Part shown: positions 5,815 to 54,548 of the stretch, in pieces
Numbering within the stretch: position 1 is the first letter of the stretch
Layout: every line of letters starts with the position of its first letter
Assembly (NCBI GenBank): GCA_030429485.1
Contig: JAUIFD010000002.1
Span: 130-64,129, forward strand
Direction: 5' to 3'
From: Phycisphaerae bacterium
GTDB taxonomy: Bacteria; Planctomycetota; Phycisphaerae; Phycisphaerales; UBA1924
Length of the DNA stretch: 64,000 nucleotides
Position numbers and translations under genes: made by a program
Notes under the pieces: model-generated
Seen by the model: the letters and a program-made list of their open reading frames with translations, nothing else
Database searches by the model: none
Told to the model about the DNA's origin: nothing

Positions 5815-5903
5815 TCCTATCCCGCGAGAAACCAGGTGAAGCGGAGTGTAGCCGGACGCCGGATCGCCGCCCGCCGAACGGGCGCCCGCGGCTATCCTCG
5901 ATC

Positions 5904-7010: not shown

Positions 7011-7052
7011 TCGGTGCGGCCGCGCCTGCCAGCGCGCCACTACCATCCCCCA

Positions 7053-8246: not shown

Positions 8247-8281
8247 CGCTGTCGGTGCCCGATTCCCAATACGATGTCTGC

Positions 8282-15397: not shown

Positions 15398-15414
15398 TCC
15401 GTGGGATCTTGCCG

Positions 15415-15768
15415 ATGACACCACATGAAATCATCACGATCGTTGGAGGTCCATCGGTTCTTCTGGCCGGCAGTGCTCTTGGGTACTTGTTACGAGAAGT
15501 GCAGTTCCGCTCGCATCCGTTCCTGGCTATTCAGTCTGTTGAGGGTGGGGTGCTGGAGAACGCGCGCGAAGTAGACATACACCAAGAAGCCAGAGTTAGC
15601 GGTTCATCGATTTGGTCGACGGCATCAAGCCGAGCAAAGGCACGCGTAGTCACACGGCGGAGACAGTTGCTGCGCTTGGATCCTTGTTCCAAGTCAGAAT
15701 GTTCGCGCACTACGTCGCAGCGACCGTGTCCGCTGGAAAGGTCGTGCTTCCCACCCAGACAAGCGTAG
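15415..15768 (+). CDS. hypothetical; only the first ~60 codons look protein-like (TM helix). Possibly the 5' part of a frameshifted gene continued in 15612..16451
   Basis: MTPHEIITIVGGPSVLLAGSALGYLLREVQFRSHPFLAIQSVEGGVLENAREVDIHQEARVSG is plausible. After ~15600 this frame becomes Arg/Ser/Cys-rich junk, while the -1 frame becomes protein-like. Confidence 0.3.
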   Translation: MTPHEIITIVGGPSVLLAGSALGYLLREVQFRSHPFLAIQSVEGGVLENAREVDIHQEARVSGSSIWSTASSRAKARVVTRRRQLLRLDPCSKSECSRTTSQRPCPLERSCFPPRQA

Positions 15769-16451
15769 AGGTCAGTGCAGGTTCCTCGCCGGTTAAGGTG
15801 CATTACGACAAGGAGCTTGGCGGGTTCGTTGTCTGGTTTCCAGCACATCAATACATGTTCGCAGAGGGGCTCATTCGCACGGACGATGCGCCCGTGGCTG
15901 AGTATTTTCGGGGGTTCTTGCAATGCGTGGCGCAAGCGGACCCCGCACCGATCGCGAAGGCTCTAAAGCAGATAGTTGTCTCGTTCAAAGATGAGTTGCA
16001 GGCCGCTAAGGAAAGCTATCCGCATCTCCGGTCTATTGTCGATTCACATAGCCGTTGGGTAATCGATGCGTACGTTGCAAACGTTTCGAGATACCCTCTG
16101 GTTCTGCACCCGGTTGCCGAAGCGACCATTCGTGACCGCAGCAAGGCTCGGTACACCCACCGATGCCACTTGGCGCCTTACATTGGTAGCGATAACGGAC
16201 CGCAGAGGAGGGTGCTTCGCCAGCCGCTGTCATTCAAGGCAGGTCAGGACATGAGGCTGTCGTTTGTCTTCGATCAGATGCAGAAGGACCTCGGTCACGG
16301 TGCTGCGATTCGCGAAGCGTTTACAAAGGGCACTGCCACTGTGAAACTACGGGTTCGTGTTTCGGGTGTTGCATGGTTGTCTCGGCGCTCAATAACAACG
16401 AGAAGGGTTCCGTTCGCAGAGCCCGAAGCAGTAGGCGAACGGGAGCGCTGA
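15612..16451 (+). CDS. hypothetical protein with no recognisable family, in the low-GC island
   Basis: A 279-codon ORF with balanced composition (…VKVHYDKELGGFVVWFPAHQYMFAEGLIRTDDAPVAEYFRGFLQCVAQ…). The frame opens just after a TAG at 15597. The start is uncertain: TTG 15612, a later ATG, or a frameshift fusion with 15415. Confidence 0.5.
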   Translation: MVDGIKPSKGTRSHTAETVAALGSLFQVRMFAHYVAATVSAGKVVLPTQTSVEVSAGSSPVKVHYDKELGGFVVWFPAHQYMFAEGLIRTDDAPVAEYFRGFLQCVAQADPAPIAKALKQIVVSFKDELQAAKESYPHLRSIVDSHSRWVIDAYVANVSRYPLVLHPVAEATIRDRSKARYTHRCHLAPYIGSDNGPQRRVLRQPLSFKAGQDMRLSFVFDQMQKDLGHGAAIREAFTKGTATVKLRVRVSGVAWLSRRSITTRRVPFAEPEAVGERER

Positions 16452-16456
16452 TGGTA

Positions 16457-16621
16457 TCAGCACCCGATCTGATACGCCGCGAGATAGGCGAAGAAGTCGT
16501 TCGTGTTGATCATGCCATCGGGCGAGAAGTCGGCCCCAAGGTCCTGCGCTTGATACAGCGCCAGGAAGGCGAAGAAGTCGTTGGTGTTGACGTCACCTTC
16601 GCCGGTGAGATCGGCGGGGCA
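16457..16621 (-). repeat. dockerin-like C-terminal module coding repeat, copy 1 of 7
   Basis: A 54 codons + stop unit shared with 27457, 28822, 29742 (minus strand) and 37550, 40172, 40886 (plus strand). Confidence 0.85.
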
Positions 16622-17062
16622 CGTGGGCTCGGCTGCCCGGACGTAGGAGAACGACCCGCCCGAGGAGCTCATCTGTCCCCACGCGGTGAACCGGATGTCG
16701 ATGTAGATGTCGTCGGTGATGAGGTGGACGACTGCGTCTTGCCCGACCGTGCCAGGTGGGTTGCTGGAGGCCCAAGTCTGCCAAGGCGCGAACGTCAGGT
16801 TCTGCCAGTCGGCCGCCAGCCCGTACGCCCACTCGGTGTCGTCGGGCCCCAGGTTGGAGTACGCCGCCTGGGTCACCGCGTTGAAGAGCCCCTGCGCGTT
16901 GCCGCGCGTGATCCAGACACTGTCGGTGATGCGGTCTTGGTTGTCCGCCTGAGTTGCGTCGGCGAACGCGTCCTTCGAGAAGGCGTAGTCGTACCCGCTC
17001 CAGACCTGCTGGGCCTGAGCGGAGGTCACGGCCAAGCCAAACACGAGCATAACGGCGCGCAT
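16457..17062 (-). CDS. secreted protein, unknown ~125-aa passenger plus C-terminal GC-terminated dockerin-like module
   Basis: Signal peptide MRAVMLVFGLAVTSAQAQQ. C-terminus CPADLTGEGDVNTNDFFAFLALYQAQDLGADFSPDGMINTNDFFAYLAAYQIGC-stop. Confidence 0.8.
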   Translation of the reverse strand: MRAVMLVFGLAVTSAQAQQVWSGYDYAFSKDAFADATQADNQDRITDSVWITRGNAQGLFNAVTQAAYSNLGPDDTEWAYGLAADWQNLTFAPWQTWASSNPPGTVGQDAVVHLITDDIYIDIRFTAWGQMSSSGGSFSYVRAAEPTCPADLTGEGDVNTNDFFAFLALYQAQDLGADFSPDGMINTNDFFAYLAAYQIGC

Positions 17063-17166
17063 GGAGTTCCTTTCGACTCGGAGTCGTCGAAACCTACCAC
17101 GCCCAGCCGGTTTGGCATTCCGCCGAACACGCTGGGGGCCGACAAGATGAGTGCTTTGGCGCGAGA

Positions 17167-17493
17167 TTAGGCGGTAATACCGGTGACCTTGACCGCGGTG
17201 TAGCGCTGGCGGTGTCCGGTCTTCCGGCGGTAGCCGATCTTGGCCTTGAACTTGTGGATGTAGATCTTCTCGCCCTTGACGACCGGCTCGGTGACCTCGG
17301 CGGTCACGGAGGCGCCGCTGACGTAGGGGCGGCCGACGGTGATGTTGCCGCCGGCTTCGCCGATGAGCAGCACCTTGTCGTAGGTGATGGCGTCGCCAGC
17401 CTTTGCGTCACCCGCGTTGATGAGGTCGACGAGGATCTCCTCGCCCTGCTCCACGCGGCGCTGGCCGCCCGACTCTTCGATGATGGCGAACAT
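17167..17493 (-). CDS. rplU: 50S ribosomal protein L21
   Basis: MFAIIEESGGQRRVEQGEEILVDL...KIYIHKFKAKIGYRRKTGHRQRYTAVKVTGI is canonical L21. ATG at 17493. The track ORF to 18072 is an upstream extension overlapping the peptidase gene. Confidence 0.95.
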   Translation of the reverse strand: MFAIIEESGGQRRVEQGEEILVDLINAGDAKAGDAITYDKVLLIGEAGGNITVGRPYVSGASVTAEVTEPVVKGEKIYIHKFKAKIGYRRKTGHRQRYTAVKVTGITA

Positions 17494-42899: not shown

Positions 42900-45800
42900 A
42901 TGCACCTTCCCACCAGCGTTCACGCCCTCGCGAGGCGGGCCGCCCGCCTTGCGTCTGTCGCCCTTGTCGCGACCGCGTCCGCGCAGTCCACGTCCGACTC
43001 GCCGCTCGACCCTCCGCCCAACGGGATGCGCCGGATCGAGCCGGCGCTGCACGTGCTCCAGGGCGCGACGGTCCATCAGCGCCCGGGCGAGGTCATCCCC
43101 GACGCGACGGTGGTCATCAATCGCGGTCGGATCGTGGCGGTCGGGCCGTCGGCGGGAGTGCGCACGCCTGCGGGCGCGCGCGTGTGGGATTGCAAGGGGC
43201 TCCACATCTACGCGGGGTTCATCGATGCGCACATCCCCGTCGATGCCCCCGCCCCCGGTGGTGGTGATACGGGTGCACACTGGAACCCGCTCATCACGCC
43301 GCAGCGCTCCGCGCTCGCCGGCCCCGGGCTTTCGAACGACGCCAAGGGCAAGCTCAACAAGCTCGGATTCACGTCGGGCGCCCTCGCGCCCGAGGGGGGC
43401 ATCTTCGCCGGTCGCGCTGCGGTGGTCTCGCTCGCACCGACGCCGGGCGATGAGAGCATGGCGCAGCCCGAGGTCTACCGCGACGGTGCATACCAGGCGG
43501 CGGCGTTCGATACCGCCGGGCGCGGCGGGGGGTATCCGAACAGCCAGATGGGCTCGATCGCGCTGATGCGCCAGACGCTCAGCGACGCCGACTGGGTCGC
43601 CTCGAACGGGCACGCCGACGACGAAGTGCCCGAGTGCCTCGATGCGCTCGTCGCCACGCGCGGTGTGGATGCACCGATCATCGCGTTCCGCACGCGCGAC
43701 GAGCTCGAGGCCCTCCGGGCGGTCAAGGTCGCCCACGAGTTTGATCGCCAGGCGATGCTCGTGGGTTCGGGCACGGAGTTTCGCCGTTTGGACGCGCTGG
43801 CCGAGGCGGGGCTCCCGATCATCCTGCCGCTGACCTATCCCGAGACGCCCGACGTCTCGACGGTCGGCAAGGCCGACTCGGTGGACCTCCGCGACCTGCT
43901 TACCTGGGAGCAGGCCCCGACCAACGCGCGGCGTCTGCACGACGCGGGCCTGTCGGTGGCGCTGACCGCCTCCGGGCTGCGCCGCGGCGAGGCGTTCGAC
44001 AAGAACCTGAAGAAGGCGATAGAAACCGGCGGGCTTGAGGCAGACGCCGCGCTCGCCATGCTCACGACCAACCCCGCGAACGCCCTGGGCGTGAGCGATC
44101 AGCTCGGCGCGGTCGCCCGCGGCAAGCGAGCCAACCTCATCGTCGCGACGGGTGATCTCTTCGACGACGAGGCGAACGAGGATAAGAAGCCCGCGAAGAT
44201 CCGCGACCTCTGGATCGACGGGCTGCGTTACGAAATCAACCCCGCCGATCCGCCAGAGCTCGACGGCGATTGGTTACTCACGGTCGGCGAGTTCTTCTCG
44301 ATGCAGCTCTACTTCGACGAGGGCACGCTGCACTTTGGCGATCACGATCACAAGGGCAAGGCGCGCAAGCTCGAGGTCACACGCGACGGGCGGATCACCT
44401 TCGTCGTCGATGATCCCGAGGAAGAGGGCGGCGACGCCTATCTCATGTCCGGCACGCTGCATGACGACGGCGAGAGCATGAGCGGCACGGGGCTCAACCC
44501 CGAGGGCAAAGCCTTTGGGTGGACCGCCAAGCGCACCGGCGACCCGCGATCGAGCGAGCTTCGCGGCGAGTGGGAAGCCACCCTCGCCGGACGATTCGAA
44601 CTCGAACTCGACGTGAAGCGCAAGGGGCTCGAATGGTCGGTCACGGTGATGGAAGAAACCACCGACGACGACGGCAACGAGAAGACCATCAAGCAGAACG
44701 CGGAGGATGTCGAGGTCGAAGGCCTCACGCTCTCGTTCCAGTTCGAGCACGAACCCTTCGGCATGGCGGGCGTCTTCAAGCTCTCCGCCACGCTGCAGGA
44801 TGACGGCACGCTCAGCGGCACGGGCGAACGCCCGGACGGCCAGGCGTTCGATTGGACCGCTACGAAAGACGACGCGGACGACGAAGAAGACGCCGATGGT
44901 GACGACGGCGACGACCAGGATGCCGACGACAACGAGAAAGAAGACGAGGACGACGAGCAGGACAAGCTCCCGCCCGAGGACCTGCCGGGCTTGCCCTTCG
45001 GCGCGTACTCGATGGCGGAACTTCCCGACCAGGAGACGATCATCTTCCAGAACGCCACGATCTGGACCTGCGGCCCGGCCGGCGTGATCGATCGCGGATG
45101 GGTCATGATCCACGACGGCAGAGTCGTCGCGGTCGGCGAAGGAGCGCCCGAGTATTCAGGTCCGGCCAAGCCGCGTTACATCGAAGCGGAAGGGCTCCAC
45201 ATCACGCCCGGGCTGATCGATGCGCACTCCCACACCGGCATCTCGCGCGGCATCAACGAGAGCGGGCAGGCCGTGACGGCTGAGGTCCGCATCGCCGACG
45301 TCACCGACCCGGACGCCATCAACTGGTATCGCCAGCTCGCTGGCGGGCTCACGGTCGTGAACAACCTCCACGGCTCGGCCAACCCCATCGGCGGGCAGAG
45401 CCAGACCAACAAGATCCGCTGGGGCGTCACCCGACCCGACGACATGCACATGGAAGGCGCCAAGCGCGGCATCAAGTTTGCTTTGGGCGAAAACGTCAAG
45501 CAGTCGAACTGGGGCTCGGACTTCACGACCCGCTATCCACAGACGCGCATGGGCGTCGAGACGACCTTCCGCGATCGCTTCAACGCAGCTGATGAATACG
45601 CCTCCGACCCGAACCACCGCCGCGACCTCGAGCTCGAAGCCCTCGCGGAGATCCTCGCGGGCGAGCGCCTCATCCACTGCCATTCGTACCGTCAGGACGA
45701 GATCCTGATGCTCTGCAAGGTTGCGCACGATTACGGCTTCAAGATCGGCACCTTCCAGCACGGGCTCGAGGTCTACAAGGTCGCCGAGCACGTGCGCGAC

Positions 45801-46472
45801 GCCGCGATCGGCGCGTCGATCTTCTCCGACTGGTGGGCGTACAAGTTCGAGGTCTACGACGCGATCGCCTACGCCGGCCCGCTCCAGACGCAGGTCGGTG
45901 TGCTCACGAGCTACAACTCGGATTCCGACGAGCTCGCGCGGCGCATGAATGTCGAGGCAGCGAAGGCTGTGAAGTATTCGGGCGGCGCGATCTCGGAAGA
46001 AGAGGCCCTCAAGTTTGTCACGATCAACCCCGCGACCCAGCTCGGCATCGCCGATCGGGTTGGCTCGATCGAAGTCGGCAAAGACGCGGACCTCGCGGTC
46101 TGGTCGGGCTCGCCACTCTCCAGCTTCTCTCGGTGCGAGCACACGTTTGTCGACGGGCGTGAATACTTCTCGCTCGAGCGCGACGCGGGGCTCCGCGAAC
46201 AGAACGCTGCGCACCGCAAGCGCGTCGTGCAGCGGATTCTCGCGGAAGGCAAGCCCAAGGGCGGGAGTGACCCTGGTGGGAATGGGCGACCGAGCCGACC
46301 CGGCGACGCAACCAACTCGCTCGCGTCCGGACGCCTCCCGCTCGTCGAGCGCATGCGTCTCGAAGCCACGCGCGATCACTACTACAACCTGATGCTCCAG
46401 GGCATCGACCCCGAAGTGCACCAGTGCGGCGACTGCGGCGTCACCGATCTTCAGTATGGAGCCGGCCGATGA
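42900..46472 (+). CDS. large secreted two-lobed amidohydrolase-superfamily protein with an internal duplicated beta-domain and a polyacidic linker
   Basis: Signal-like N-terminus ...ASVALVATASAQS. The first lobe has YAGFIDAHIPVD (second His of HxH missing). The second lobe has TPGLIDAHSHTGISRG (intact HxH). The C-terminal region GSIEVGKDADLAVWSG is typical of amidohydrolases. Confidence 0.8.
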   Translation: MHLPTSVHALARRAARLASVALVATASAQSTSDSPLDPPPNGMRRIEPALHVLQGATVHQRPGEVIPDATVVINRGRIVAVGPSAGVRTPAGARVWDCKGLHIYAGFIDAHIPVDAPAPGGGDTGAHWNPLITPQRSALAGPGLSNDAKGKLNKLGFTSGALAPEGGIFAGRAAVVSLAPTPGDESMAQPEVYRDGAYQAAAFDTAGRGGGYPNSQMGSIALMRQTLSDADWVASNGHADDEVPECLDALVATRGVDAPIIAFRTRDELEALRAVKVAHEFDRQAMLVGSGTEFRRLDALAEAGLPIILPLTYPETPDVSTVGKADSVDLRDLLTWEQAPTNARRLHDAGLSVALTASGLRRGEAFDKNLKKAIETGGLEADAALAMLTTNPANALGVSDQLGAVARGKRANLIVATGDLFDDEANEDKKPAKIRDLWIDGLRYEINPADPPELDGDWLLTVGEFFSMQLYFDEGTLHFGDHDHKGKARKLEVTRDGRITFVVDDPEEEGGDAYLMSGTLHDDGESMSGTGLNPEGKAFGWTAKRTGDPRSSELRGEWEATLAGRFELELDVKRKGLEWSVTVMEETTDDDGNEKTIKQNAEDVEVEGLTLSFQFEHEPFGMAGVFKLSATLQDDGTLSGTGERPDGQAFDWTATKDDADDEEDADGDDGDDQDADDNEKEDEDDEQDKLPPEDLPGLPFGAYSMAELPDQETIIFQNATIWTCGPAGVIDRGWVMIHDGRVVAVGEGAPEYSGPAKPRYIEAEGLHITPGLIDAHSHTGISRGINESGQAVTAEVRIADVTDPDAINWYRQLAGGLTVVNNLHGSANPIGGQSQTNKIRWGVTRPDDMHMEGAKRGIKFALGENVKQSNWGSDFTTRYPQTRMGVETTFRDRFNAADEYASDPNHRRDLELEALAEILAGERLIHCHSYRQDEILMLCKVAHDYGFKIGTFQHGLEVYKVAEHVRDAAIGASIFSDWWAYKFEVYDAIAYAGPLQTQVGVLTSYNSDSDELARRMNVEAAKAVKYSGGAISEEEALKFVTINPATQLGIADRVGSIEVGKDADLAVWSGSPLSSFSRCEHTFVDGREYFSLERDAGLREQNAAHRKRVVQRILAEGKPKGGSDPGGNGRPSRPGDATNSLASGRLPLVERMRLEATRDHYYNLMLQGIDPEVHQCGDCGVTDLQYGAGR

Positions 46473-47821
46473 ACAAGCTCACTCGCTCATTGCTCGCGAT
46501 CGTGCTCGCTGCGGGCTCTTCACTCGCCCAAGACCTTCGCCCCTCAGCGGCGCCGCAGACCACGCCCGTGCTCATCGAGCACGCGACGATCCACACGATC
46601 TCCGGTGAGGTCATGGAAGACGCATCGCTCGCCTTCGAAGGCGGTCGAATCTCGGCGATCGCGCCCGCGGGCATCTCGCTCGCGTTCGCGAACCCGCCCG
46701 AGGTGATCGATGCGACCGGGTTGCACGTGTATCCCGGGCTCATCGCGCCTTCGACGCAGCTCGGGCTGATCGAGATCAGCGCCGTGCGCGCGACCGACGA
46801 CCAGTCCGAAGTGGGGGATATGACCCCCGAAGTCGCCGCGGTCACCGCGGTGAACCCGGATTCGACGATCATCCCCGTGACGCGCGCCAACGGCATCCTC
46901 ACCGCGGGCGTCATGCCGCGCGCCCAGCTCCGCCTCGGCGGGCCCTCGGGGCTCATCCCCGGGCACGCGTCGGTGATCCGTCTCGACGGGTGGACCAACG
47001 ACGACCTTGCGGTGCGCTCGCGCGCAGGCCTGGTGATCAACTACCCCATGCCCCGGCCCGTGCGCGCGTGGTGGATGAGCGAAGACGATTCTGCGCAGAC
47101 ACGCGGCATCGATGCCGCGGTGAGCATGCTCGACGAGTTCTTTAACCGCGCGACCACCTATGCCGCGCAGCACGACGACGCGACGACCACCGACCTGCGC
47201 TACGAGGGCGCCCTCGCCTGCCTGCCCGATGCCGAGGAGCAACTCCCGGTGTTCATCCAGGCGAACGACTACGACCAGATCGTCGCCGCGCTCGGGTTTG
47301 CCGAGCGGCACGGGCTGCGTCCGGTGATCGTCGGCGGGCGCGATGCGCACATGTGCATCGATCAGCTCAAGGCGCTGGACGCTTCGGTGATCCTCATCAC
47401 GCCGTACCGCACGCCCAAGCGCGACGATTCGCCATACGACCTCAACTACGCGAGCTCCGTGGCGCTCGAGCAGGCCGGCATCCTCTGGACGCTCGATACC
47501 GGTGACGACACCGCGCACGAGCGCAATCTCCCTTATGCCGCCGCGATCGCCGTCGCCCACGGCCTCTCGCCCGACGCCGCGCTGCGCGCCCTCACCCTCT
47601 CCGCCGCCGAGATCCTCGGCGTGGCCGACGATCTGGGCTCGATCGAGTCGGGGAAGGCCGCAACGCTCATCATCACCGATGGTCACCCGCTCGAAGTCAC
47701 GACCACCATCCACCACGCCTTCATCGACGGGCGCGAGATCGACCTCGGCTCCAAGCAGACCGATCTCCGCGACAAGTACGAAGAGAAGTACCGCCAGCTC
47801 GGCGACCTGCCGCGGAAGTAG
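46469..47821 (+). CDS. amidohydrolase-fold protein lacking the HxH metal motif (probable non-catalytic partner)
   Basis: ATG 46469 overlaps the upstream stop (ATGA). Signal peptide MNKLTRSLLAIVLAAGSSLAQ. YPGLIAPSTQLGLIEI sits where xDxHxH is expected. The C-terminal GSIESGKAATLIITDG resembles the amidohydrolase C-terminal strand. Confidence 0.75.
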   Translation: MNKLTRSLLAIVLAAGSSLAQDLRPSAAPQTTPVLIEHATIHTISGEVMEDASLAFEGGRISAIAPAGISLAFANPPEVIDATGLHVYPGLIAPSTQLGLIEISAVRATDDQSEVGDMTPEVAAVTAVNPDSTIIPVTRANGILTAGVMPRAQLRLGGPSGLIPGHASVIRLDGWTNDDLAVRSRAGLVINYPMPRPVRAWWMSEDDSAQTRGIDAAVSMLDEFFNRATTYAAQHDDATTTDLRYEGALACLPDAEEQLPVFIQANDYDQIVAALGFAERHGLRPVIVGGRDAHMCIDQLKALDASVILITPYRTPKRDDSPYDLNYASSVALEQAGILWTLDTGDDTAHERNLPYAAAIAVAHGLSPDAALRALTLSAAEILGVADDLGSIESGKAATLIITDGHPLEVTTTIHHAFIDGREIDLGSKQTDLRDKYEEKYRQLGDLPRK

Positions 47822-47853: not shown

Positions 47854-48426
47854 CTACTGCTCCACGATCAGATCATCGCGCAGCAGGATCGCCTCGCCCT
47901 CGCGCCCGACCGTCGTGAATACGGCCCGCACCACCAGGCGATCAAGCCCGCTGCTCTCCGTGCCGCGCACGCGCGCCTCCGCGCGGTCGATCATCGGCTC
48001 CACCCACCCGGGCAGCCCCACGAGCTGCACGCGATACGCCCGCGCGACCGGATCGAACAGCGCCACATTCACATCCTCGGATCGCAGGTCGATGTCCCAC
48101 ACCGACTCCCGCACCAGCGAGCCGTCCCGCATCGGGCGGTAAAGCTGCATCTGGAGCGAGCCCAGCGCCTTGATCGAATCGCCCCATCGGTCCTTCACCT
48201 CGACGTAGGCGATGAGTCGGCCTCGCCCGTCCTCGTCGCGTTGGAGGTGTGTGAGCGGGTAGAGCCGCACCGTCGCTGGCGCGAACACGAGCGCCGAGTC
48301 GCGCGTCAGCCCCTCGTCATCGAGCGCCCGAAGCGTCATCGATGCGCCTTCCGGCGGGGGCGGTGCGCTCGTACACCCCGCCAGACTCGCGGCCACCCCC
48401 GTTGCCAGCATCGCTCGCCGTCGCAT
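47854..48426 (-). CDS. hypothetical lipoprotein
   Basis: MRRRAMLATGVAASLAGCTSAPPP carries the lipobox LAGC. It is the last gene of the minus-strand block. Confidence 0.6.
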   Translation of the reverse strand: MRRRAMLATGVAASLAGCTSAPPPPEGASMTLRALDDEGLTRDSALVFAPATVRLYPLTHLQRDEDGRGRLIAYVEVKDRWGDSIKALGSLQMQLYRPMRDGSLVRESVWDIDLRSEDVNVALFDPVARAYRVQLVGLPGWVEPMIDRAEARVRGTESSGLDRLVVRAVFTTVGREGEAILLRDDLIVEQ

Positions 48427-48436
48427 CGGCGGGAGC

Positions 48437-48703
48437 TTACTCCATCCGATCCCGTCCCGAGTCGCGGATCAGGCCGATCAGCTCCCGCTGCGCCGCTTCG
48501 AGTGCGGTCATCGCGCGGGTGTTGGCCCGGACCGTGTCGATCACCGCGTTGATCTCGATCCGATCGCTCATGAGGCGGCCGTGCGCCTCCGAGATCTCCC
48601 GCTCGCGGCCGGCGGCCGCCCGACGTTCCGCGAGCCACATCCACGCCACGAGCCCCGCGACTCCGAACTGCGTCAGCGCCGCCAGCGCCTCGACCTCGAT
48701 CAC
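48437..48703 (-). CDS. small N-terminally anchored coiled-coil protein
   Basis: GTG 48703 overlaps the upstream stop (GTGA). VIEVEALAALTQFGVAGLVAWMWLAERR (TM helix) is followed by a helical region ...EISEAHGRLMSDRIEINAVIDTVRANTRAMTALEAAQRELIGLI. The track start 48799 would overlap the upstream gene by 100 nt. Confidence 0.5.
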   Translation of the reverse strand: MIEVEALAALTQFGVAGLVAWMWLAERRAAAGREREISEAHGRLMSDRIEINAVIDTVRANTRAMTALEAAQRELIGLIRDSGRDRME

Positions 48704-49131
48704 CGCAGGCCCACGATGCTCGGCGCCGACCCGCCGCGTTCGGTCGCCGGGGTCAAGTACGCGAAGTTCCGGAACGTCGCGACATACGCGATCGACCACA
48801 CCCGCCCGCGGTCCACCCGGTCGGCTTCCTCATATCGCATGAACACCATGTCGGCCCAAGTCCGCCCGTGCTCGTCCACGAGTGTCCCCCCGGAGGGTGA
48901 GTCCTCCAACTCAGCAGTCACCGCGTCGCGGGCCGTCCAGAGCGCCGCCTCGCTCGCCGCGACCAGGCGGCCGGTCACAATCACGTCGAGTTCCAGCAGG
49001 CCGTACGGCGCCGAGGCCGGGTCGATGATCCCGAAGTACAGCTCGTTGAGCACGAGGTGCCCTTGCCGACCCAGCGCGAACCGGTGCGGCCCCGAGTTGA
49101 ACAGCGACTTGCTCTTGAACGAACTTGCCAT
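48700..49131 (-). CDS. hypothetical protein in the phage-like block
   Basis: 143-aa ORF whose ATG 49131 lies 9 nt after the upstream stop. No recognisable motif. Confidence 0.5.
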   Translation of the reverse strand: MASSFKSKSLFNSGPHRFALGRQGHLVLNELYFGIIDPASAPYGLLELDVIVTGRLVAASEAALWTARDAVTAELEDSPSGGTLVDEHGRTWADMVFMRYEEADRVDRGRVWSIAYVATFRNFAYLTPATERGGSAPSIVGLR

Positions 49132-49140
49132 GACAGCCCC

Positions 49141-49608
49141 CTAGGCCTCGCCGCCCTCGTCCGACGTCTCACCCACTCCAGTCTCGTTCGTTTCGCCGAC
49201 GGTGCCGACGTCGCCGACAACGACCGGATCGGTTGAACCATCTTCCGAGACCGCTCGGAGTGTGATCGTGCGCCCCGCGCCGCCCTTCACGCTTACTTCG
49301 TGCGATACCCCAACGATCACACAAGTCGCAGCAAACTCGCGTGCCCCGCGCGGCGAGGCCGTCGGCGATGTGACAAACGTCAGCTCAGCCTCCTCGCCCA
49401 GCGCGAGGGCTCCGATGTCATCGCCAGCGATCGTCTGCACGACCTTGACGATCACCCGCTCCTCTGGCACGTCCACGAGCGTGCACCACGGGCCGTGGTC
49501 AGACCAGTCCTCGACGAGGCGGGCGGCGGTGCGATCGACCGCGACCATCGCCGCGTCGGTCCACACGCGATCGCCGAACCGCACCTGCCGCGGGTTCACA
49601 AAGAGCAT
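49141..49608 (-). CDS. hypothetical protein in the phage-like block
   Basis: 155-aa ORF. ATG 49608 is preceded by AGGAGA and lies 9 nt after the upstream stop. It has an acidic C-terminal tail. Confidence 0.5.
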   Translation of the reverse strand: MLFVNPRQVRFGDRVWTDAAMVAVDRTAARLVEDWSDHGPWCTLVDVPEERVIVKVVQTIAGDDIGALALGEEAELTFVTSPTASPRGAREFAATCVIVGVSHEVSVKGGAGRTITLRAVSEDGSTDPVVVGDVGTVGETNETGVGETSDEGGEA

Positions 49609-49617
49609 CGTCGTCTC

Positions 49618-50256
49618 CTACAGGCGGGTGAGCACGATCGTGTTGAGCCGTCGGGTCGCGTCGGGCAGCCCGTCGCCGTCCAGATCGATCCGGGCCGCCG
49701 CGCGCTGGCGCTCGTCCGCGAACCGCTGTCGGTACATCTCGGCCCGTTCCGCCAGCGGCGATCCACCCGGCGCGAGCGCCGCCGCCGAAGCAAAGACCAG
49801 GTGCAGCGCTCCGAGCGCCTCAAGCAGCCGCAGTCCGTTCGGGTTGGTGATGTCGTCCTCCGTGAGGGCATCGTCGTCGGGGTCATCGGGCTCGATGCCG
49901 ACCGCCCGCAGCACCTGACGATGCACGATGCCGATCTGCGGCAGGAACGTGGGCACGATCAGCTCGCCACCCGAGAGCGTCTCTACTGCGATCGGATCGT
50001 CTTCACTCGAAGGGCGCATCTTCGAGACCGTCGCCGTCGTCGACGTGAGGACCTCAATCACCTCGAGTGGCACGCCCGCAACCGACACCACGTGCCCGGC
50101 GTCGACGCCCGCGTCCGTGAGCGAGAGCGAGGCGGTGATCGTGAGTGTCGTGCCGCTCACGCCCGCCGTCCCCGTGATCAGCGTCTGCCCCGACCACCCC
50201 ACATCGCGCAGCAGGTCGGGCTCGAGCACCATGAGATCGCGATCCAGTGCGAACAT
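49618..50256 (-). CDS. hypothetical protein in the phage-like block (position of a head-completion / connector gene)
   Basis: ATG 50256 is preceded by GAGGAGGTGGTG (strong SD) and is preferred over the track's TTG at 50274. It lies immediately downstream of the capsid gene. Confidence 0.55.
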   Translation of the reverse strand: MFALDRDLMVLEPDLLRDVGWSGQTLITGTAGVSGTTLTITASLSLTDAGVDAGHVVSVAGVPLEVIEVLTSTTATVSKMRPSSEDDPIAVETLSGGELIVPTFLPQIGIVHRQVLRAVGIEPDDPDDDALTEDDITNPNGLRLLEALGALHLVFASAAALAPGGSPLAERAEMYRQRFADERQRAAARIDLDGDGLPDATRRLNTIVLTRL

Positions 50257-50323
50257 CACCACCTCCTCAGCCAATGCCGCAAGCCCGCGGGCGCGCCTCT
50301 CGGCGCGCCGCGAGACCCCCCGA

Positions 50324-51502
50324 TCAATCGCCGGTCGTACTCAGGCCGCTCAGCACGGCGTGAGCGTTCTCGTTCCGGAACTCGAGTGTGTACTCACCGA
50401 TGAGCTGTCCGTTGATCGCGTCACCGGTCGCGCCCAGCGGCTGGTAGAAGAAGCTCCGCCCGGCCATCGGCATCACGCTGACGCGGGAAGAGTCGAGCAG
50501 AAGAACGGTGTCCGCCGGCGCCCAGCGCGTCATCACGACCCTGCACACGCCAAAGTCGCTCTCATACACGCTGACGACGTTCTTCATCGTCTCGTCGTCG
50601 GGCGCGTACCGCCTCTCGGTGAGGATGAAGTCATTGAGCGCCCGCTTCTGTGTCGCGTTCATGACGAGCGTGTCGACCGAGCCCGACGAGCTCTCCCACA
50701 CCGTGCGCAGTGCCGCGTTGAGTACTTCTTCCGTGAGCACGTCCTGGCTCGTGCCGCCTCCGTCGGGGATCGTGCCGGTTCCGGGCGTGAGCACGTTGGT
50801 CGAGATCGATTGGACGATCCCGTTCATCGTGCGGCGCACCGTGCTCGACCCCTGCGGGTTTGAAGCCGCGGCCACCCCGTTGATGACCGTGTTCTCCAGG
50901 TCGCGCAGCATCTCGCGCAGTCGCTCGGCCTTCTGGTAGTCGGCCTCGTCGTCGATGCCGTGCTGCCGTGCCGCCTGCATCGTGCCCGAGACGCGGATCG
51001 TCTCGGTGAAGATCTGCGTGTAGTTCTGCTTGCGGACGCGGCTCGTGAATCGTGCCGCCGCCGCGTCCTCGCCCTCGAGCGCCGCGTTTCCCAGGATGTG
51101 CAGGTCCTGGTTGTTGGTGACGCTCGCGGCCGTTGTCCCGCCGTACCCGCGCACCACGGTGAGCGTGTCGGTGATGATGTCGGTGACGAGCCACACCTCG
51201 CCCGTCCCCGCCGGCTGCACGAGGTCGCCGATCCGGAAGCGGCCCGCGTTGTCCACCTTGATCGTCGTGTCGCTCAGCGCATCCGGTGAGAACGACGACT
51301 GGTCGATCTTGTCGGTGTTCGGAATCAGCGAATCCTCGATCCACTCGTGGATCGTGTTGGTCGCCACCCGCCTCGGGTCGCCGAGGAAGTCGAGCAGCGG
51401 CGTCTCGTGCGGACTCACAATCCCGATGATGTCCGAGACGTCCTCAGCAAGCTCTGGCAGGTCCGTGCCCGCCGAGTATGTCGCCTTACCCGTGAATGTC
51501 AT
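50324..51502 (-). CDS. phage major capsid protein, DUF5309 / SU10-MCP-like (HK97 fold family)
   Basis: ATG 51502 is preceded by AAGGGGG. The N-terminal block ELAEDVSDIIGIVSPHETPLLDFLGDPRRVATNTIHEWIEDSL matches my recollection of the conserved DUF5309 start (..DlsdvI.nisP.eTPf.s.ig.......h.W.eD.L). The 392-aa size and the position after portal and scaffold fit. The track ORF to 51994 is an Arg-rich extension. Confidence 0.8.
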   Translation of the reverse strand: MTFTGKATYSAGTDLPELAEDVSDIIGIVSPHETPLLDFLGDPRRVATNTIHEWIEDSLIPNTDKIDQSSFSPDALSDTTIKVDNAGRFRIGDLVQPAGTGEVWLVTDIITDTLTVVRGYGGTTAASVTNNQDLHILGNAALEGEDAAAARFTSRVRKQNYTQIFTETIRVSGTMQAARQHGIDDEADYQKAERLREMLRDLENTVINGVAAASNPQGSSTVRRTMNGIVQSISTNVLTPGTGTIPDGGGTSQDVLTEEVLNAALRTVWESSSGSVDTLVMNATQKRALNDFILTERRYAPDDETMKNVVSVYESDFGVCRVVMTRWAPADTVLLLDSSRVSVMPMAGRSFFYQPLGATGDAINGQLIGEYTLEFRNENAHAVLSGLSTTGD

Positions 51503-51591
51503 GCATGCACCCCCTTGGTTTGTGCGTGTACGTGTTCTTGCGAGCCGACGCTCGCGCTGTGGTGGTGATCCAGTACCCGTCGACGCGCGGC

Positions 51592-52152
51592 CTAGCTCGC
51601 GCGCCGCGCCCGCAGGTAGCGCAGGAGCAGACGCTTGTCGCCGCTCTGCCGAGCCGCGTCGGCGATGGCCTCTCGCGTTCGGGGCGAGGCGGCGTTGTGT
51701 GCGGGAGCGAGACCGGTCGCGAGCCCGCGCACGCCGCGCCTTGCGAACAGCCGCGGATTGGACGCCACCACGCGCCGCACGGCCTCGACCGGCTCGTCCG
51801 CGTTCGGATCGACGAGGGCTCTGGCGGCGGCGAGGTCGTGTGCGCCCGCTCGCACCAGTTCCACATCGATCAGGCCCGCCCGCGCCGAGGCGGTCAGAGC
51901 GCTCTTCAGGTCGTTCGCCGCTGCTTCGGCATCCGCGAGCCGCGCCGCGACCTCGGCCAGTCGTACCTCCGCCTCGTCCGCTCGGGTACGCCATCCGCTC
52001 TGCTCGTCAGCCGGCTCCGGGGCGGCGCCGGGCGCGTCGCCATCAGTTCTTTCGCCATCGTCGCGCGTCGGGCGTTCGTCCGCTTCCGCCTCGCGCTGCG
52101 CCACGGGCGCGGTCAGACTCTCGATCAACTCGCGGTCCACGGTTTCGTTCAA
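51592..52152 (-). CDS. scaffolding-like protein (acidic N-terminus, Ala-rich helical region)
   Basis: The call rests on position between portal and capsid, helical low-complexity composition (AEVRLAEVAARLADAEAAANDLKSAL) and a TTG start overlapping the portal stop (TTGA). No family-specific motif recognised. Confidence 0.45.
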   Translation of the reverse strand: MNETVDRELIESLTAPVAQREAEADERPTRDDGERTDGDAPGAAPEPADEQSGWRTRADEAEVRLAEVAARLADAEAAANDLKSALTASARAGLIDVELVRAGAHDLAAARALVDPNADEPVEAVRRVVASNPRLFARRGVRGLATGLAPAHNAASPRTREAIADAARQSGDKRLLLRYLRARRAS

Positions 52153-53654
52153 AGCACACCCCCATCCGTCGGCTCATATCCGAGTTCGTCGCGCACCCGT
52201 TCGGCAGAGACGCCGAGGTCGATCTTCCGCTTCGCCGCCAGCGTCTCATCGAGCACGTCCTCGGGCAGCGGGTCGGGCCACTCGAGGCGCACGCCTCGAT
52301 CGGCGGCGCCGGTGCGGAGCACACCCGCCGTGTCGAGCGCGCGGAGGATCAGCTCGCTGACCTGCGCGATCCCCCGCCCGTAGGTCACGCGCTTGCGAGC
52401 CGTCTTGGCGAGCAGGCCCACGAGCGTGATCTTCAGCGCGTTCGCGCTCGAGAGGTTGCCCACGCGCCCTTGCACCACGCCGGTCGCGAGGGGCGGCACG
52501 GCGCTCGTCTTGTCGAGCGCGTCGCGCACCTCCTTGATGTGCGCGTCCTCGCTCGGGCTCGCCGCGTCGCCGCCGAAGGCCTCGACCGAGGCGTCGGGGT
52601 TATCGGTGCTCCACACCTGGCCCGGGCCGACCGGCACGCGATCAAACCCCTCGATCCCGCGGGCGAGGTACATCTTGAAGCTCTGCAACGTCACACGGCT
52701 CGCGCGGTCGCTCAGCCGCGTGTTCAGCTCGTCCTGCAACGGCACGAGCGGCTCCACCTCGCTCAGGCCCGAGTAGTGGAACGGCTGCGCGATGTTCTGG
52801 ATGTGCACCACCGGCAGCGTGTCGCCGAGCAGGCGGTCCTCATCCTCGGCGATCAGCTCGCCATCCTCGAACACCCACCGGCGCCCCGGCTCGATGATCT
52901 CCGTCAGCGTCGAGCGCCGGCGTGCGCCGGCATCAACACCGGCGAGCCCGAGCCAGCGCCCGAAGCGCCCGCCCTCGGCCACCTCGTTGAGCGTGCGTTC
53001 GTAGTGGATGACGTACGACGCGAGCCGCCGATAGTCGCCCGGGTCGAGCACCGGAATGCCACGCTTCGGCTCGACCGGTTCGATCAGGAACGCGTCGGCG
53101 ATGCGGCGAAGAGCGGTGTCGGAGAGGGCGCCCTCGCGCTGTCGCAGTGCCGGCGCGTCGCCCAGGCGATCGGCGTCGGTGCGCACAATCAGATCGACAT
53201 GCCCATACACGTGCCCGAGCAGCGCCATGTCCTGCAAGAGCGCGATCCCGCCCGATGCCTCCCACACCGCGTCGAGCAAGCGGTCGATCGCGTCGCGCAG
53301 CGCCGCATCGCTCGCGGTCGAGCGCAACCGGACCGGCTTGCCGAACATGAAGTCCACCATCGTGTGAACGCGCCACGCGATGTCGTTCTCGATCACGATC
53401 TCTCGGCGCGACGCGGCCCGATCGTCCTCATGCGCCCCGACCCGCCCCGTCAGGCGGCGCGGGAGCCCGTCCCGCTGCGCGAGCTTCCGCCCCGCGCCGC
53501 CCACGCCCTCGCCCGCCACGGGTTCGACCGGATTTCGGTAGTAGCGCCACAGCGTCTCCATCCGCGGCAGCTCGACCGCTTCGTGCTCCGCGATGAGCGC
53601 GTCGAGCAGCGCCTCGTCCAGCCCGGCCTGCGCGAATCCAGCCTGCTCGCTCAT
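52149..53654 (-). CDS. phage portal protein (SPP1 Gp6-like type)
   Basis: 501 aa. METLWRYYRNP and IENDIAWRVHTMVDFMFGKPV resemble the conserved N-terminal portal blocks (..YY.G.. ; N..a..ivd....y.fGkPv). ATG 53654 is preceded by GGGAGGG. It is the first gene of the block. Confidence 0.65.
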   Translation of the reverse strand: MSEQAGFAQAGLDEALLDALIAEHEAVELPRMETLWRYYRNPVEPVAGEGVGGAGRKLAQRDGLPRRLTGRVGAHEDDRAASRREIVIENDIAWRVHTMVDFMFGKPVRLRSTASDAALRDAIDRLLDAVWEASGGIALLQDMALLGHVYGHVDLIVRTDADRLGDAPALRQREGALSDTALRRIADAFLIEPVEPKRGIPVLDPGDYRRLASYVIHYERTLNEVAEGGRFGRWLGLAGVDAGARRRSTLTEIIEPGRRWVFEDGELIAEDEDRLLGDTLPVVHIQNIAQPFHYSGLSEVEPLVPLQDELNTRLSDRASRVTLQSFKMYLARGIEGFDRVPVGPGQVWSTDNPDASVEAFGGDAASPSEDAHIKEVRDALDKTSAVPPLATGVVQGRVGNLSSANALKITLVGLLAKTARKRVTYGRGIAQVSELILRALDTAGVLRTGAADRGVRLEWPDPLPEDVLDETLAAKRKIDLGVSAERVRDELGYEPTDGGVL

Positions 53655-53818
53655 GCAACCCTCCCGAGTCCGCGGCGATCGTCGCCCCGCTCAACCTTCG
53701 CGCCGCCGGACGCGTTCGTGCGCGCGCCGCACCCCCGCCCTCGGCCGCGATCGGCACGCCCGAGCCCGCCAGCCCGCCAACCACGCTGCGGATCGGCGCC
53801 GAACGGGCGACCTCCCGG

Positions 53819-53844
53819 AGCCCGGCGCGTGCGCGCGCCGGGCT
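53819..53844. promoter_or_regulatory. perfect 11-bp GC-rich inverted repeat in the divergent portal / MBL-like intergenic region
   Basis: agcccggcgcg / tgcg / cgcgccgggct, ending 12 nt upstream of ATG 53856. It could be an operator palindrome or a 5'-UTR hairpin. Confidence 0.35.
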
Positions 53845-53855
53845 TACGATGCCGC

Positions 53856-54548
53856 ATGGACCTCCGCGTGATCTCGATCGGCGCCCTGTCGGCTCACCCA
53901 CTCCGGAATGAGGCGCCCGCCACCCGCACCGGGCACGCGACGACCACCCTCGTGCGCACCGGCGACAACGTCATCCTCATCGATCCGGGCCTGCCGGGCG
54001 TCGTCCTCGAGCAGCGGCTGAGCGAGCGGGCCGGCATCCCGCCCACCGCCGTCACCCACGTCTTCCTCACGAGCTTCAAGCCTGCGACTTCGCGCGGCAT
54101 CACGATCTTCGAGGCCGCCGAGTGGTTCATCTCGGAGCACGAGCGCGAAGCGGTCGGCATCCCGCTCGCGCAGATGGCCCGCACCCTCGCGGAGAGCGAC
54201 GACACCCCCGAGGACGAAGCCACGCGGCGCGAGCTCGAGTTTCAGATCGGCGTCCTCCAACGCTGCCGACCCGCCCCCGACCGGCTCGCCCCGGGCGTCG
54301 ACCTCTTCCCGCTCCACGGCGTGACGCCGGGGCTCACCGGGCTGCTTCTCCCCGAATCGAGCCGCACAACGCTGATCTGCGGCGACGCGATCCCGACCAT
54401 CGAGCACCTCGAGCGCGGGCAGGTGCTCCAGTCGGCCGCCGACGTCGAAGCGGCCCGGGAGAGCCTCACCGAGGCGATCGAGATCGCCGACGTCCTCGTC
54501 CTCGGGCGGGACAATCTGACGCCGAACCTCACCAAACGCCCGTTCTAG
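53856..54548 (+). CDS. MBL-fold protein with a degenerate metal-binding motif (probable pseudo-enzyme)
   Basis: The layout VILIDPG...(40 aa)...THVFLTSFKPATSRG...LHGVTPG...LICGDAIP follows the metallo-beta-lactamase fold order. TSFKPAT replaces THxHxDH. This is only the last 230 codons of the 1172-codon track ORF 51030..54548. Confidence 0.6.
   Translation: MDLRVISIGALSAHPLRNEAPATRTGHATTTLVRTGDNVILIDPGLPGVVLEQRLSERAGIPPTAVTHVFLTSFKPATSRGITIFEAAEWFISEHEREAVGIPLAQMARTLAESDDTPEDEATRRELEFQIGVLQRCRPAPDRLAPGVDLFPLHGVTPGLTGLLLPESSRTTLICGDAIPTIEHLERGQVLQSAADVEAARESLTEAIEIADVLVLGRDNLTPNLTKRPF

Follow-up and report, generated by a model that had tools for sequence, protein, structure and literature searches.

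Why would a bacterium keep the genes of a phage capsid at a place where no terminase, tail or integrase gene accompanies them? The question is raised by a stretch of 64,000 nucleotides from a Phycisphaerae bacterium (phylum Planctomycetota, order Phycisphaerales; GenBank assembly GCA_030429485.1, contig JAUIFD010000002.1, positions 130 to 64,129 of the forward strand), hereinafter designated the window. Eight minus-strand open reading frames (ORFs) span positions 47854-53654 of the window (5.8 kb) and encode, in order of transcription, a portal protein, a scaffold-like protein, a major capsid protein (MCP) and five small proteins, hereinafter designated g4 to g8. An earlier note, made from the letters of the window, had described these ORFs with the same sizes, overlaps and gaps that we find, had called them a head module, and had proposed an ameliorated prophage remnant, a domesticated capsid-forming module or a compartment-like shell. 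We find that the eight genes very probably form a capsid operon that is domesticated and functional, and the host seems to have a use for the particle as such.

The operon encodes a portal and a major capsid protein of phage families

The portal gene (52149..53654, minus strand) encodes a 501-aa protein of the SPP1 gp6 type. The protein matches Pfam family PF05133 (SPP1_portal) over residues 21-471, with an E-value of 7.6e-18 and 65.1 bits against a cut-off of 25.5, and matches PHROG portal families with E-values of 8.7e-18 and 2.1e-14. Portal orthologues in the first 82 loci recovered from related genomes are 44-67% identical. The capsid gene (50324..51502, minus strand) encodes a 392-aa protein of the SU10/DUF5309 family. 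Its match to Pfam family PF17236 (SU10_MCP/DUF5309) has an E-value of 2.8e-91 and 306.5 bits against a cut-off of 24.1 and spans model positions 11-291 of 292, and its match to the PHROG major head protein has an E-value of 6e-83. Both matches lie far above the Pfam cut-offs, in agreement with the portal and capsid calls made earlier; judged by their profiles, the two proteins are bona fide members of PF05133 and PF17236. The capsid profile also matches the solved capsids 9ny2_A (9e-34), 9in6_M and 7z45_A, the last from SU10. The solved relatives contain seven chains per deposited sequence, which suggests that the shell is probably T=7-like.

The gene between portal and capsid (51592..52152, minus strand; 186 aa) starts with TTG and overlaps the portal stop by 4 nt. 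The acidic and Ala-rich character that had been noticed in its product is confirmed (23% Ala, 18% Asp+Glu, pI 5.2), and the protein ends in a basic C-terminal helix, GDKRLLLRYLRARR. BLAST finds the gene in 44 of 58 loci; 13 of the 14 BLAST-negative loci have, between portal and capsid, an ORF with the C-terminal motif GDRRxLLxYLRxRR. Position and composition point to a scaffold role for this protein.

In one genome (locus L056), a gene for a 1317-aa product (5243-9196, plus strand) is inserted between the portal and scaffold genes, and the N-terminus of the product carries a protein-kinase-like glycine loop, LIGEGGFGVVW. This locus is without g7 and g8, and the N-termini of its neighbours resemble ruvC and dnaN by eye.

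The operon is conserved, syntenic and under purifying selection

One genome per GTDB species was scanned with capsid patterns, and the hits were confirmed by tblastn; taxon names follow the submitters' records. Capsid matches came from at least 558 species-level genomes, and the best 80 were inspected. All of these 80 loci are labelled Phycisphaerae or Planctomycetota, except two labelled 'uncultured bacterium'; complete chromosomes are included, and the capsids differ from that of the window by 30-39%. Besides the window's own capsid, 119 listed homologues are 63-69% identical and 388-404 aa long, lie on contigs of up to 3.2 Mb and, where named, come from Phycisphaerales or Planctomycetota metagenome-assembled genomes.

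The locus itself is conserved along with the capsid. In the window, two plus-strand amidohydrolase genes (42900-46472 and 46424-47821) lie downstream of g8. On two chromosomes the gene run adjoins the same two amidohydrolases and reads portal, ~170 aa, capsid, ~213, 132, 126 or 87, 90 and 170 aa. By tblastn and ORF calling, the eight genes are colinear and open in nearly all of the best 80 loci, and the two amidohydrolases follow the operon in about half of them. Clustering of the flanking ORFs gives the recurrent families PTPS, phosphoglucomutase, an 85-aa protein, the two amidohydrolases and phosphofructokinase; no terminase- or phage-like family recurs among the clustered flanking ORFs of the related loci. 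In the complete chromosomes, the 10-kb flanks of the module contain host genes only.

Among the 58 loci with enough flanking sequence, g4 is present in 57, g5 in 51, g6 in 52, g7 in 52 and g8 in at least 43, and the most persistent set consists of portal, scaffold, capsid, g4, g7 and g8. Pairwise identities of the capsid and of the adjacent amidohydrolases rise and fall together (Spearman coefficients 0.88 and 0.85), as in a host-versus-host control (0.885). The capsid is nevertheless the more conserved protein, with a mean identity of 75% versus 58% for its amidohydrolase neighbours.

All eight genes are under purifying selection. Specifically, the median dN/dS (Nei-Gojobori, 14-20 species pairs) is 0.136 for portal, 0.241 for scaffold, 0.079 for capsid, 0.141 for g4, 0.300 for g5, 0.207 for g6, 0.174 for g7 and 0.197 for g8, and the compared pairs contain no internal stop in any of the eight genes. 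The earlier note had held that conservation at the same locus with intact ORFs and low dN/dS would indicate domestication. The same syntenic chromosomal locus, intact and colinear genes, and dN/dS of 0.08-0.30 are found in dozens of species; therefore domestication is supported, and the ameliorated, decaying prophage remnant is refuted. In the loci inspected, we saw neither orthologues with frameshifts nor a patchy distribution at odds with host phylogeny.

In some pairs of closely related species (L028/L032, L046/L051 and L036/L030), the dS of g5-g8 exceeds that of portal, capsid and g4 by a factor of 3-5. In the pair L028/L032 it amounts to 0.21-0.32 in portal, capsid and g4 and to 0.74-1.48 in g5-g8. 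Across all loci, the identities of g5 and capsid correlate poorly, with a Spearman coefficient of 0.24. The raised dS of g5-g8 suggests either recombinational exchange of the distal genes or strong codon-bias differences.

No terminase is encoded near the operon

As described earlier, Pfam and profile annotation of the 64-kb window reveals no terminase, tail or integrase gene. When three TerL proteins were compared by tblastn with the window and with 1.48 Mb of related loci, nothing matched; the search covers the window and the 10-kb flanks of the module in those loci. Among the eight proteins and their neighbours there is no match to small terminase, replication or primase families, and the locus contains no gene for a tube polymer, tape measure, baseplate or fibre. 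No replication gene is found in the window or in the conserved flanks of related loci, and no holin or endolysin gene in the operon or its conserved flanks.

In one lineage, represented by L029 (12872-16075, plus strand; CP051526.1, labelled Tepidisphaera sp.) and L041 (11089-14202, plus strand), an FtsK gene follows g6 on the same strand after 20-60 nt, and g7 and g8 are absent. The FtsK is full-length, with 4TM (TM, transmembrane), alpha, motor and gamma domains, that is, a membrane-anchored translocase of double-stranded DNA. We considered it as a packaging motor and set it aside, as only one lineage has it beside the module and its domains are the complete set of a housekeeping FtsK; it is probably the housekeeping ftsK, placed beside g6 by chance.

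Probable neck and envelope proteins are encoded downstream of the capsid

The capsid gene is bordered by gaps of 89 nt on the scaffold side and 67 nt on the side of g4 (49618..50256, minus strand; 212 aa). [quoted passage not shown] Foldseek finds no significant match to g4 in the PDB. In BFVD, it finds weak, low-TM-score matches to phage tail-fibre barrels and one match to a 'head to tail adaptor' at 3.4e-3. From its position and modelled architecture, g4 may tentatively be regarded as a head-to-tail adaptor. The C-terminal hairpin bears an invariant DxDxDG loop, IDLDGDGLPDATRR (49660-49701, minus strand; residues 186-199), in which D191, D195 and G196 are invariant; the loop matches polcalcin EF-hand loops with an E-value of ~0.03, which suggests a candidate Ca2+ site.

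g5 (49141..49608, minus strand; 155 aa) lies between 9-nt gaps to g4 and to g6. It has no match in Pfam, PHROG, NCBIfam, PADLOC or the PDB, and hhalign finds nothing in comparison with g6, SPP1 gp16 or gp16.1. We suspect from its position that g5 is a component of the neck.

g6 (48700..49131, minus strand; 143 aa) was modelled with a pLDDT of 83. Its top 50 Foldseek matches in the PDB are almost all tail-tube-fold proteins of phages, tailocins or a gene transfer agent (GTA), with E-values of 3e-4 to 3e-2, probabilities mostly >0.9 and query TM-scores of up to 0.56. The matches span tube, terminator, Dit and tube-initiator proteins and include the neck chain 6toa_G of RcGTA, the GTA of Rhodobacter capsulatus. 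At the sequence level, neither a PDB profile search nor hhalign against SPP1 gp17 gives a match. As modelled, g6 has the phage tail-tube fold. The operon is thus not purely a head module, because g6 has this fold.

g7 (48437..48703, minus strand; 88 aa) has a GTG start, overlaps g6 by 4 nt and is separated by 10 nt from g8 (47854..48426, minus strand; 190 aa). The two proteins have features that fit the earlier description, namely a hydrophobic helix followed by a charged helix in g7 and a lipobox, LAGC, after a signal peptide in g8. In the alignment, g7 consists of one N-terminal TM helix with conserved Q, G, G and W, an invariant ERR and a heptad-like coiled-coil helix; the N-terminus is acidic, and the ERR comes after the TM helix. 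In g8, the lipobox residue Cys18 is invariant, and the mature domain has a beta-rich sequence pattern; no family or PDB match was found for g8.

g7 matches PHROG 32121, a family of unknown function, with an E-value of 3e-3. Among 101 members of the g4, g5, g7 and g8 families, 20 match phrog_32121 and 10 match the Rz-like spanin family phrog_89, with a best E-value of 1.2e-3. These members most likely belong to g7, because the g7 of the window matches PHROG 32121 by itself. The similarity offers a weak lead towards a spanin pair formed by g7 and g8. PDB profile searches of g4, g5, g6, g7 and g8 returned only the EF-hand-like loop of g4 and coiled-coil noise for g7, and the operon proteins searched against NCBIfam gave no match. 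The label 'head module' is too narrow for the whole: the operon comprises head, neck and envelope proteins.

A dual motif precedes the operon and a hairpin follows the capsid gene

The region upstream of the portal contains a conserved cis-regulatory motif that the earlier note had missed. A distal operator-like palindrome, CCCGGCGCG-CGCA-CGCGCCGGG (53821..53842), contains the conserved core GCGCGCAC (53829-53836), 182 nt upstream of the portal start, and a proximal operator-like core, GTGCGCGC on the plus strand (53718..53725), lies 71 nt upstream of the same start. The two cores are 111 nt apart and are the only such pair in 64 kb; they are a GC-richer form of the motif. In related loci, cores of the form GTGCGC(A/G)C are present upstream of the portal in 58 of 70 cases, many of them within TTTGTGCGCAC(A/G), and cluster at about -85 and about -196 with a modal spacing of 110-114 nt. 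The density of the 9-mer is 3.88 per kb upstream of portals and 0.007 per kb in the other 1.35 Mb of locus DNA, an enrichment of ~550-fold. The motif is therefore specific to the operon and is no genomic repeat. The palindrome is perfect and loop-less, a form that would suit a site for a dimeric DNA-binding protein better than it would an RNA hairpin.

Scanning metagenomes for the dual motif gave at least 120 stretches. Of the 120 listed, 3 are module loci; the others are repeats of an unrelated kind, and no gene recurs downstream of them. Among these, the metagenome contigs L106, L108, L117, L184, L201 and L209, mostly of 0.48-0.62 GC, carry tandem TGTGCGCAC(A) arrays of up to six copies with a period of 102-125 nt, which is unlike that of CRISPR.

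A highly conserved protein of ~85 aa, with the core ...KTGSWFAHSKDKKLWLDRLELRKDDGELVVVNLDQYS..., is encoded upstream of the portal on the same strand in 43 loci and is absent from the window (examples, all on the plus strand: L061, 7163-7438; L002, 7242-7490; L001, 7315-7569). Where its gene adjoins the portal, as in L001, L002 and L061, the gap of ~300 nt between them holds both operator-like motifs. The protein has no Pfam, PHROG or NCBIfam match and may be a regulator, a small DNA-binding partner or a mere conserved neighbour.

After the capsid stop, a GC-rich hairpin (50281..50318, minus strand) of ~16 pairs with a GAGA loop is followed by CUUG. In the window it folds with -35 kcal/mol at a z-score of only -1.25, no better than shuffled sequences. 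Across 73 related loci, the post-capsid intergenic region has a median folding z-score of -3.2, with 68% of loci below -2; it is at least 69 nt long in all related loci, and in many of the loci printed out the stem is followed by GGGTTTG. The support for the hairpin thus comes from the pattern across loci and not from the fold in the window, and the hairpin may attenuate transcription or stabilise the mRNA. No RNA structure is seen in the 89-nt gap between the scaffold and capsid genes.

Relatives of the module among phages

A scan of IMG/VR with clade-specific capsid patterns revealed no close capsid relative. The phages in GenBank reach 34% identity in the capsid and ~24% in the portal. In the closest of them, Sporosarcina phage Lietuvens, the capsid gene has its usual place in the order TerL, portal, minor capsid, scaffold, MCP, five small genes, sheath and tube. 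Among cluster representatives at 50% identity, the Phycisphaerales clade collapses into one full-length representative, and the distant capsid relatives form a continuum of 237 clusters below 1e-30.

A 44%-identical capsid belongs to a metagenomic temperate phage that also encodes a TerL of the T7 type, an integrase, a CI-like repressor, Erf, RusA and DnaB. In this closest true phage (L085/L086), no homologues of g4, g7 or g8 are detectable. Capsids of 48% and 56% identity lie in module-like loci that keep g4 and g7 and are without g5 and g6; the loci with 56%-identical capsids also keep the portal and an inverted g8 and have host-type genes downstream. In these deep relatives, g7 stands beside g4 in L084 and L087, and g8 is kept inverted in L087 and L088.

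Locus L090 (2670-9739), with a 45%-identical capsid, has a different layout and host genes on both sides. Its portal is preceded by genes for a 561-aa unknown protein and a protein resembling rve-type transposases, by several small genes and by one like g4. The element may be present in L090 in a Mu-like or some other rearranged form.

Surroundings of the operon in the window

The GC content of the module is 0.691 versus 0.677 for the window, the same as its surroundings, and the flanks are as the earlier note gave them. Specifically, an MBL-fold gene (53856-54548, plus strand) lies upstream of the portal across a divergent intergenic region of 201 nt, opposite the amidohydrolase genes at the other end of the operon. 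Pfam assigns ~40 further ORFs of the window to housekeeping and envelope or envelope-biosynthesis genes only, including MscL, MetK, an AIR-synthase-related protein, AroC, TruB, H+-PPase, PolA, PhoX, GlnRS, GluRS, TerC and glycosyltransferases. Four large ORFs have no Pfam match, and tblastn of them against phages gave nothing phage-like. The contig extends over about 64.75 kb, little more than the window. The 64-kb window contains no tRNA or Rfam RNA, and PADLOC has no match for the eight operon proteins or the adjacent MBL-fold protein.

The position of the MBL-fold gene varies. It lies downstream of g8 in the two closest relatives of the window (L005, from 14795 onward; L006, from 14869 onward) and a few genes upstream of the portal in L001 (2863-3681). 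In these relatives, it has a weak precomputed match to the anti-Pycsar Apyc1 family, and it appears as a loosely linked neighbour.

Elsewhere in the window, positions 15400-17170 have a GC content of ~0.60 versus 0.68 and atypical ORFs, possibly a small acquired island. A 201-aa secreted protein encoded in this stretch (16457-17062, minus strand) has a duplicated C-terminal motif, NTNDFFAFLALYQ / NTNDFFAYLAAYQ. The stretch directly precedes a gene resembling that of ribosomal protein L21.

Proposed mechanism and alternative explanations

Taking the whole of the evidence, we lean towards a vertically inherited, tail-less, GTA-like particle that consists of capsid and neck and whose packaging ATPase is encoded elsewhere. 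The morphogenesis operon of a phage would have been domesticated by an ancestor of the Phycisphaerae and then passed on vertically as an ordinary chromosomal operon. A dedicated regulator would act on the two palindromes, 111 nt from each other, that precede the portal gene, the eight genes would be co-transcribed and translationally coupled, and the post-capsid hairpin would probably keep portal, scaffold and capsid in excess over the minor proteins encoded downstream.

The scaffold, through its basic C-terminal helix, and the portal ring would nucleate a shell of the HK97 lineage with no protease, in the way that P22, T7 and SU10 assemble their shells without one. g4, as a possible adaptor, g5 and a ring of g6 would then close the portal vertex as a short neck. 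g7 and g8 would reside at the envelope, most likely as a spanin-like pair that aids the exit of the particle. The product would be a tail-less, GTA-like carrier of nucleic acid, filled by a packaging ATPase from elsewhere. Packaging and transfer of DNA in particular are a possibility about which we are rather doubtful.

Several observations weigh against this proposal. Neither the window nor the 10-kb flanks of the module in the related loci recovered showed a terminase or another packaging ATPase. The terminase normally lies directly beside the portal gene; without one at the locus, DNA packaging is putative. There is likewise no obvious delivery of cargo to another cell, because the operon has no gene for a tail, a fibre or a protein that binds receptors. 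Nor is the neck universal, as one clade and also the deeper relatives are without g5 and g6. The envelope part of the proposal meets difficulties too: the charges of g7 suggest that its coiled coil is possibly cytoplasmic, the opposite of an inner-membrane spanin (i-spanin); the spanin similarity reaches E-values of ~1e-3 only; g8, at 190 aa, is far above the typical size of an outer-membrane spanin (o-spanin) and matches no spanin family; and no holin or endolysin gene is adjacent to the two.

One variant, which we consider unlikely, is a portal-bearing capsid without a terminase or tail of its own that docks to the envelope through its portal vertex, g7 and g8, the vertex being engaged through g4 with or without g5 and g6. 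It would act as a membrane-associated compartment, or in a tail-less export or transfer of DNA in which membrane fusion or vesicles take the place of injection through a tail. Such a machine, if true, would represent a class of virus-derived cellular machines not recognised before and would be mechanistically distinct from every known GTA, phage-inducible chromosomal island (PICI), tailocin and encapsulin.

With a similarly low probability, the operon could make a host-owned shell that is free of DNA and never filled by a terminase, that is, a nanocompartment or a membrane-docked organelle in which portal, g4, g7 and g8 tether or gate. The absence of a terminase at the locus, in the window and in all related loci examined, is what such a shell would lead one to expect, and the persistence of portal, scaffold, capsid, g4, g7 and g8 in lineages where g5 and g6 are dispensable points the same way. 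The charge pattern of g7 fits a cytoplasmic coiled coil able to contact a cytoplasmic particle, and the capsid is more conserved than the neighbouring enzymes, as expected for a protein with fixed cellular partners. However, no cargo-like enzyme with a targeting peptide is found in the operon, and known encapsulins are without a portal or separate scaffold. Adaptor and tube-fold neck proteins normally bind the portal after packaging, so that purifying selection to keep them in most lineages would be hard to explain in a shell that is never filled.

Distinctly less probable is a fixed satellite-like or defensive module that uses the terminase, and perhaps the tails, of an invading phage, either diverting packaging and aborting the infection or mobilising host DNA, in the logic of a capsid-forming PICI (cf-PICI) without the mobility. 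The gene content does resemble the morphogenetic half of a cf-PICI, with portal, capsid and connector-like proteins and neither TerL nor tail, and the higher dS of g5-g8 in close pairs could reflect exchange or diversification of parts that meet foreign tails. But no gene for an integrase, for replication or for a TerS-like protein and no att or tRNA site was found, PADLOC matches neither the eight proteins nor the MBL-fold protein, and co-divergence with the host together with slowly evolving capsid and portal (dN/dS 0.08-0.14) is the opposite of an arms race. Long-term compatibility of one portal with the terminases of unrelated phages would also be implausible. In the earlier note, domestication had been coupled to the cf-PICI analogy; domestication is strongly supported, and the analogy fails, as the module is not mobile, has no integrase, att site or tRNA in the window, is bordered in related loci by conserved housekeeping genes and diverges in step with its host.

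It is extremely unlikely that the operon is an inactive remnant of a prophage still awaiting decay, or a piece of an active prophage with its remaining genes outside the window. The phage origin of the genes and the lack of terminase, tail, lysis enzymes and integrase would fit, but at least 80 species have the same eight genes, unbroken and in one order, at a largely syntenic locus between housekeeping genes, every gene has a dN/dS of 0.08-0.30, a conserved operon-specific motif lies upstream, viral collections hold no close relative, and the window and the 10-kb flanks in complete chromosomes contain host genes only.

Significance of a capsid operon kept by its host

To our knowledge, few independent domestications of a whole phage particle are on record: the GTAs of Alphaproteobacteria, Bartonella, Brachyspira, Desulfovibrio and Methanococcus, the tailocins, and the extracellular contractile injection systems. 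The GTA-like particle that we propose would add a domesticated particle from a phylum for which none is recorded. The combination of head, neck and envelope proteins with neither terminase nor tail is an unusual architecture, and the operon is kept across a whole order-level clade, more tightly than the neighbouring metabolic genes.

The locus makes the question of why a cell keeps a capsid testable, as the operon is small (eight genes), has a specific cis motif and occurs in a class with the cultured hosts Phycisphaera, Tepidisphaera and Poriferisphaera. If the particles carry DNA, genes could be exchanged through them among planctomycetes that are abundant in the sea and in soil; if they are free of DNA, a portal-containing capsid would for the first time be seen to serve as a cellular structure. 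Pipelines for annotation and virus mining could misread the locus as a prophage fragment, and the IMG/VR scan returned no close copy of the capsid.

Comparison with known systems

The literature searched contains no description of this module in Phycisphaerae or Planctomycetota and no report of a GTA in Planctomycetota. The Phycisphaerae isolate Poriferisphaera heterotrophicis ZRK32 is reported to produce non-lytic, tail-less particles of ~30 nm, which its authors ascribe to a separate 21.9-kb extrachromosomal phage (PMC10945688). For the present module these particles are a lead only; the probable T=7 arrangement suggests a larger shell for its capsid.

RcGTA-type viriforms come closest to the module in evolutionary behaviour. 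Like RcGTA, the operon is a phage-derived structural cluster that is fixed in the chromosome, inherited vertically across a large clade and kept by purifying selection, without integrase or replication genes; an HK97-lineage capsid, a portal and neck proteins occur in both. RcGTA, however, occupies ~15 kb, opens with TerS and TerL, and has a prohead protease, tail tube, tape measure and baseplate, whereas the present operon occupies 5.8 kb without terminase, protease or tail and has a scaffold in place of the protease. Its capsid belongs to an unrelated family (SU10/DUF5309), it includes a membrane protein and a lipoprotein, and its packaging and transfer of DNA are putative. Of the features of a GTA, vertical chromosomal fixation, purifying selection and the lack of integrase and replication genes are found here; a terminase of its own and a tail or other delivery device are not found at the locus. 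Because its own terminase and tail were looked for at the locus and are absent, and both are defining features of that family, we do not count the module among the GTAs.

Mobility and a patchy distribution mark the cf-PICIs, islands that carry an integrase, att sites, replication genes, a small terminase and, in most cases, a prohead protease. The module shares with them a capsid, portal and connector-type proteins of its own and the lack of a large terminase and tail, functions that in both would have to be supplied from outside. It differs in having no integrase, att or tRNA site, TerS, replication genes or protease, and in being syntenic and co-diverging with its host.

Encapsulins are likewise host-owned HK97-fold shells kept as cellular genes. 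They are, however, without portal, separate scaffold and neck proteins and have adjacent cargo proteins, whereas the operon encodes a PF17236 phage capsid, a portal, a scaffold and a tube-fold protein and no cargo-like enzyme. The portal, the scaffold and the phage MCP family rule out that the shell is an encapsulin.

Two smaller parts of the operon may have counterparts in phages. g7 and g8 resemble Rz/Rz1 spanins in being adjacent genes, one for a small coiled-coil protein that has a single TM helix and one for a lipoprotein whose lipobox is conserved; however, the sizes are reversed (88 aa for the putative i-spanin, 190 aa for the lipoprotein), the topology of g7 is ambiguous or opposite, and no holin or endolysin is nearby. 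The closure sets gp15/gp16/gp17 of SPP1 and gp4/gp10/gp26 of P22 are similar in that three small genes directly follow the capsid, in the helix-bundle-plus-barrel architecture of the g4 model and in the tube-like fold of the g6 model, which is typical of tail terminator and completion proteins. SPP1 and the operon have no sequence similarity in these proteins, and the phage versions join the head to a tail, which the operon does not have.

Phages of the SU10 family (SU10, PDB 7z45; 9ny2; Lietuvens) differ from the operon in having a terminase directly upstream and tail genes downstream, and identity to GenBank phages is at most 34%. Their head modules share with the operon the same capsid family, the order portal, scaffold, capsid, the small head-completion genes after the capsid, and assembly genes with no prohead protease among them.

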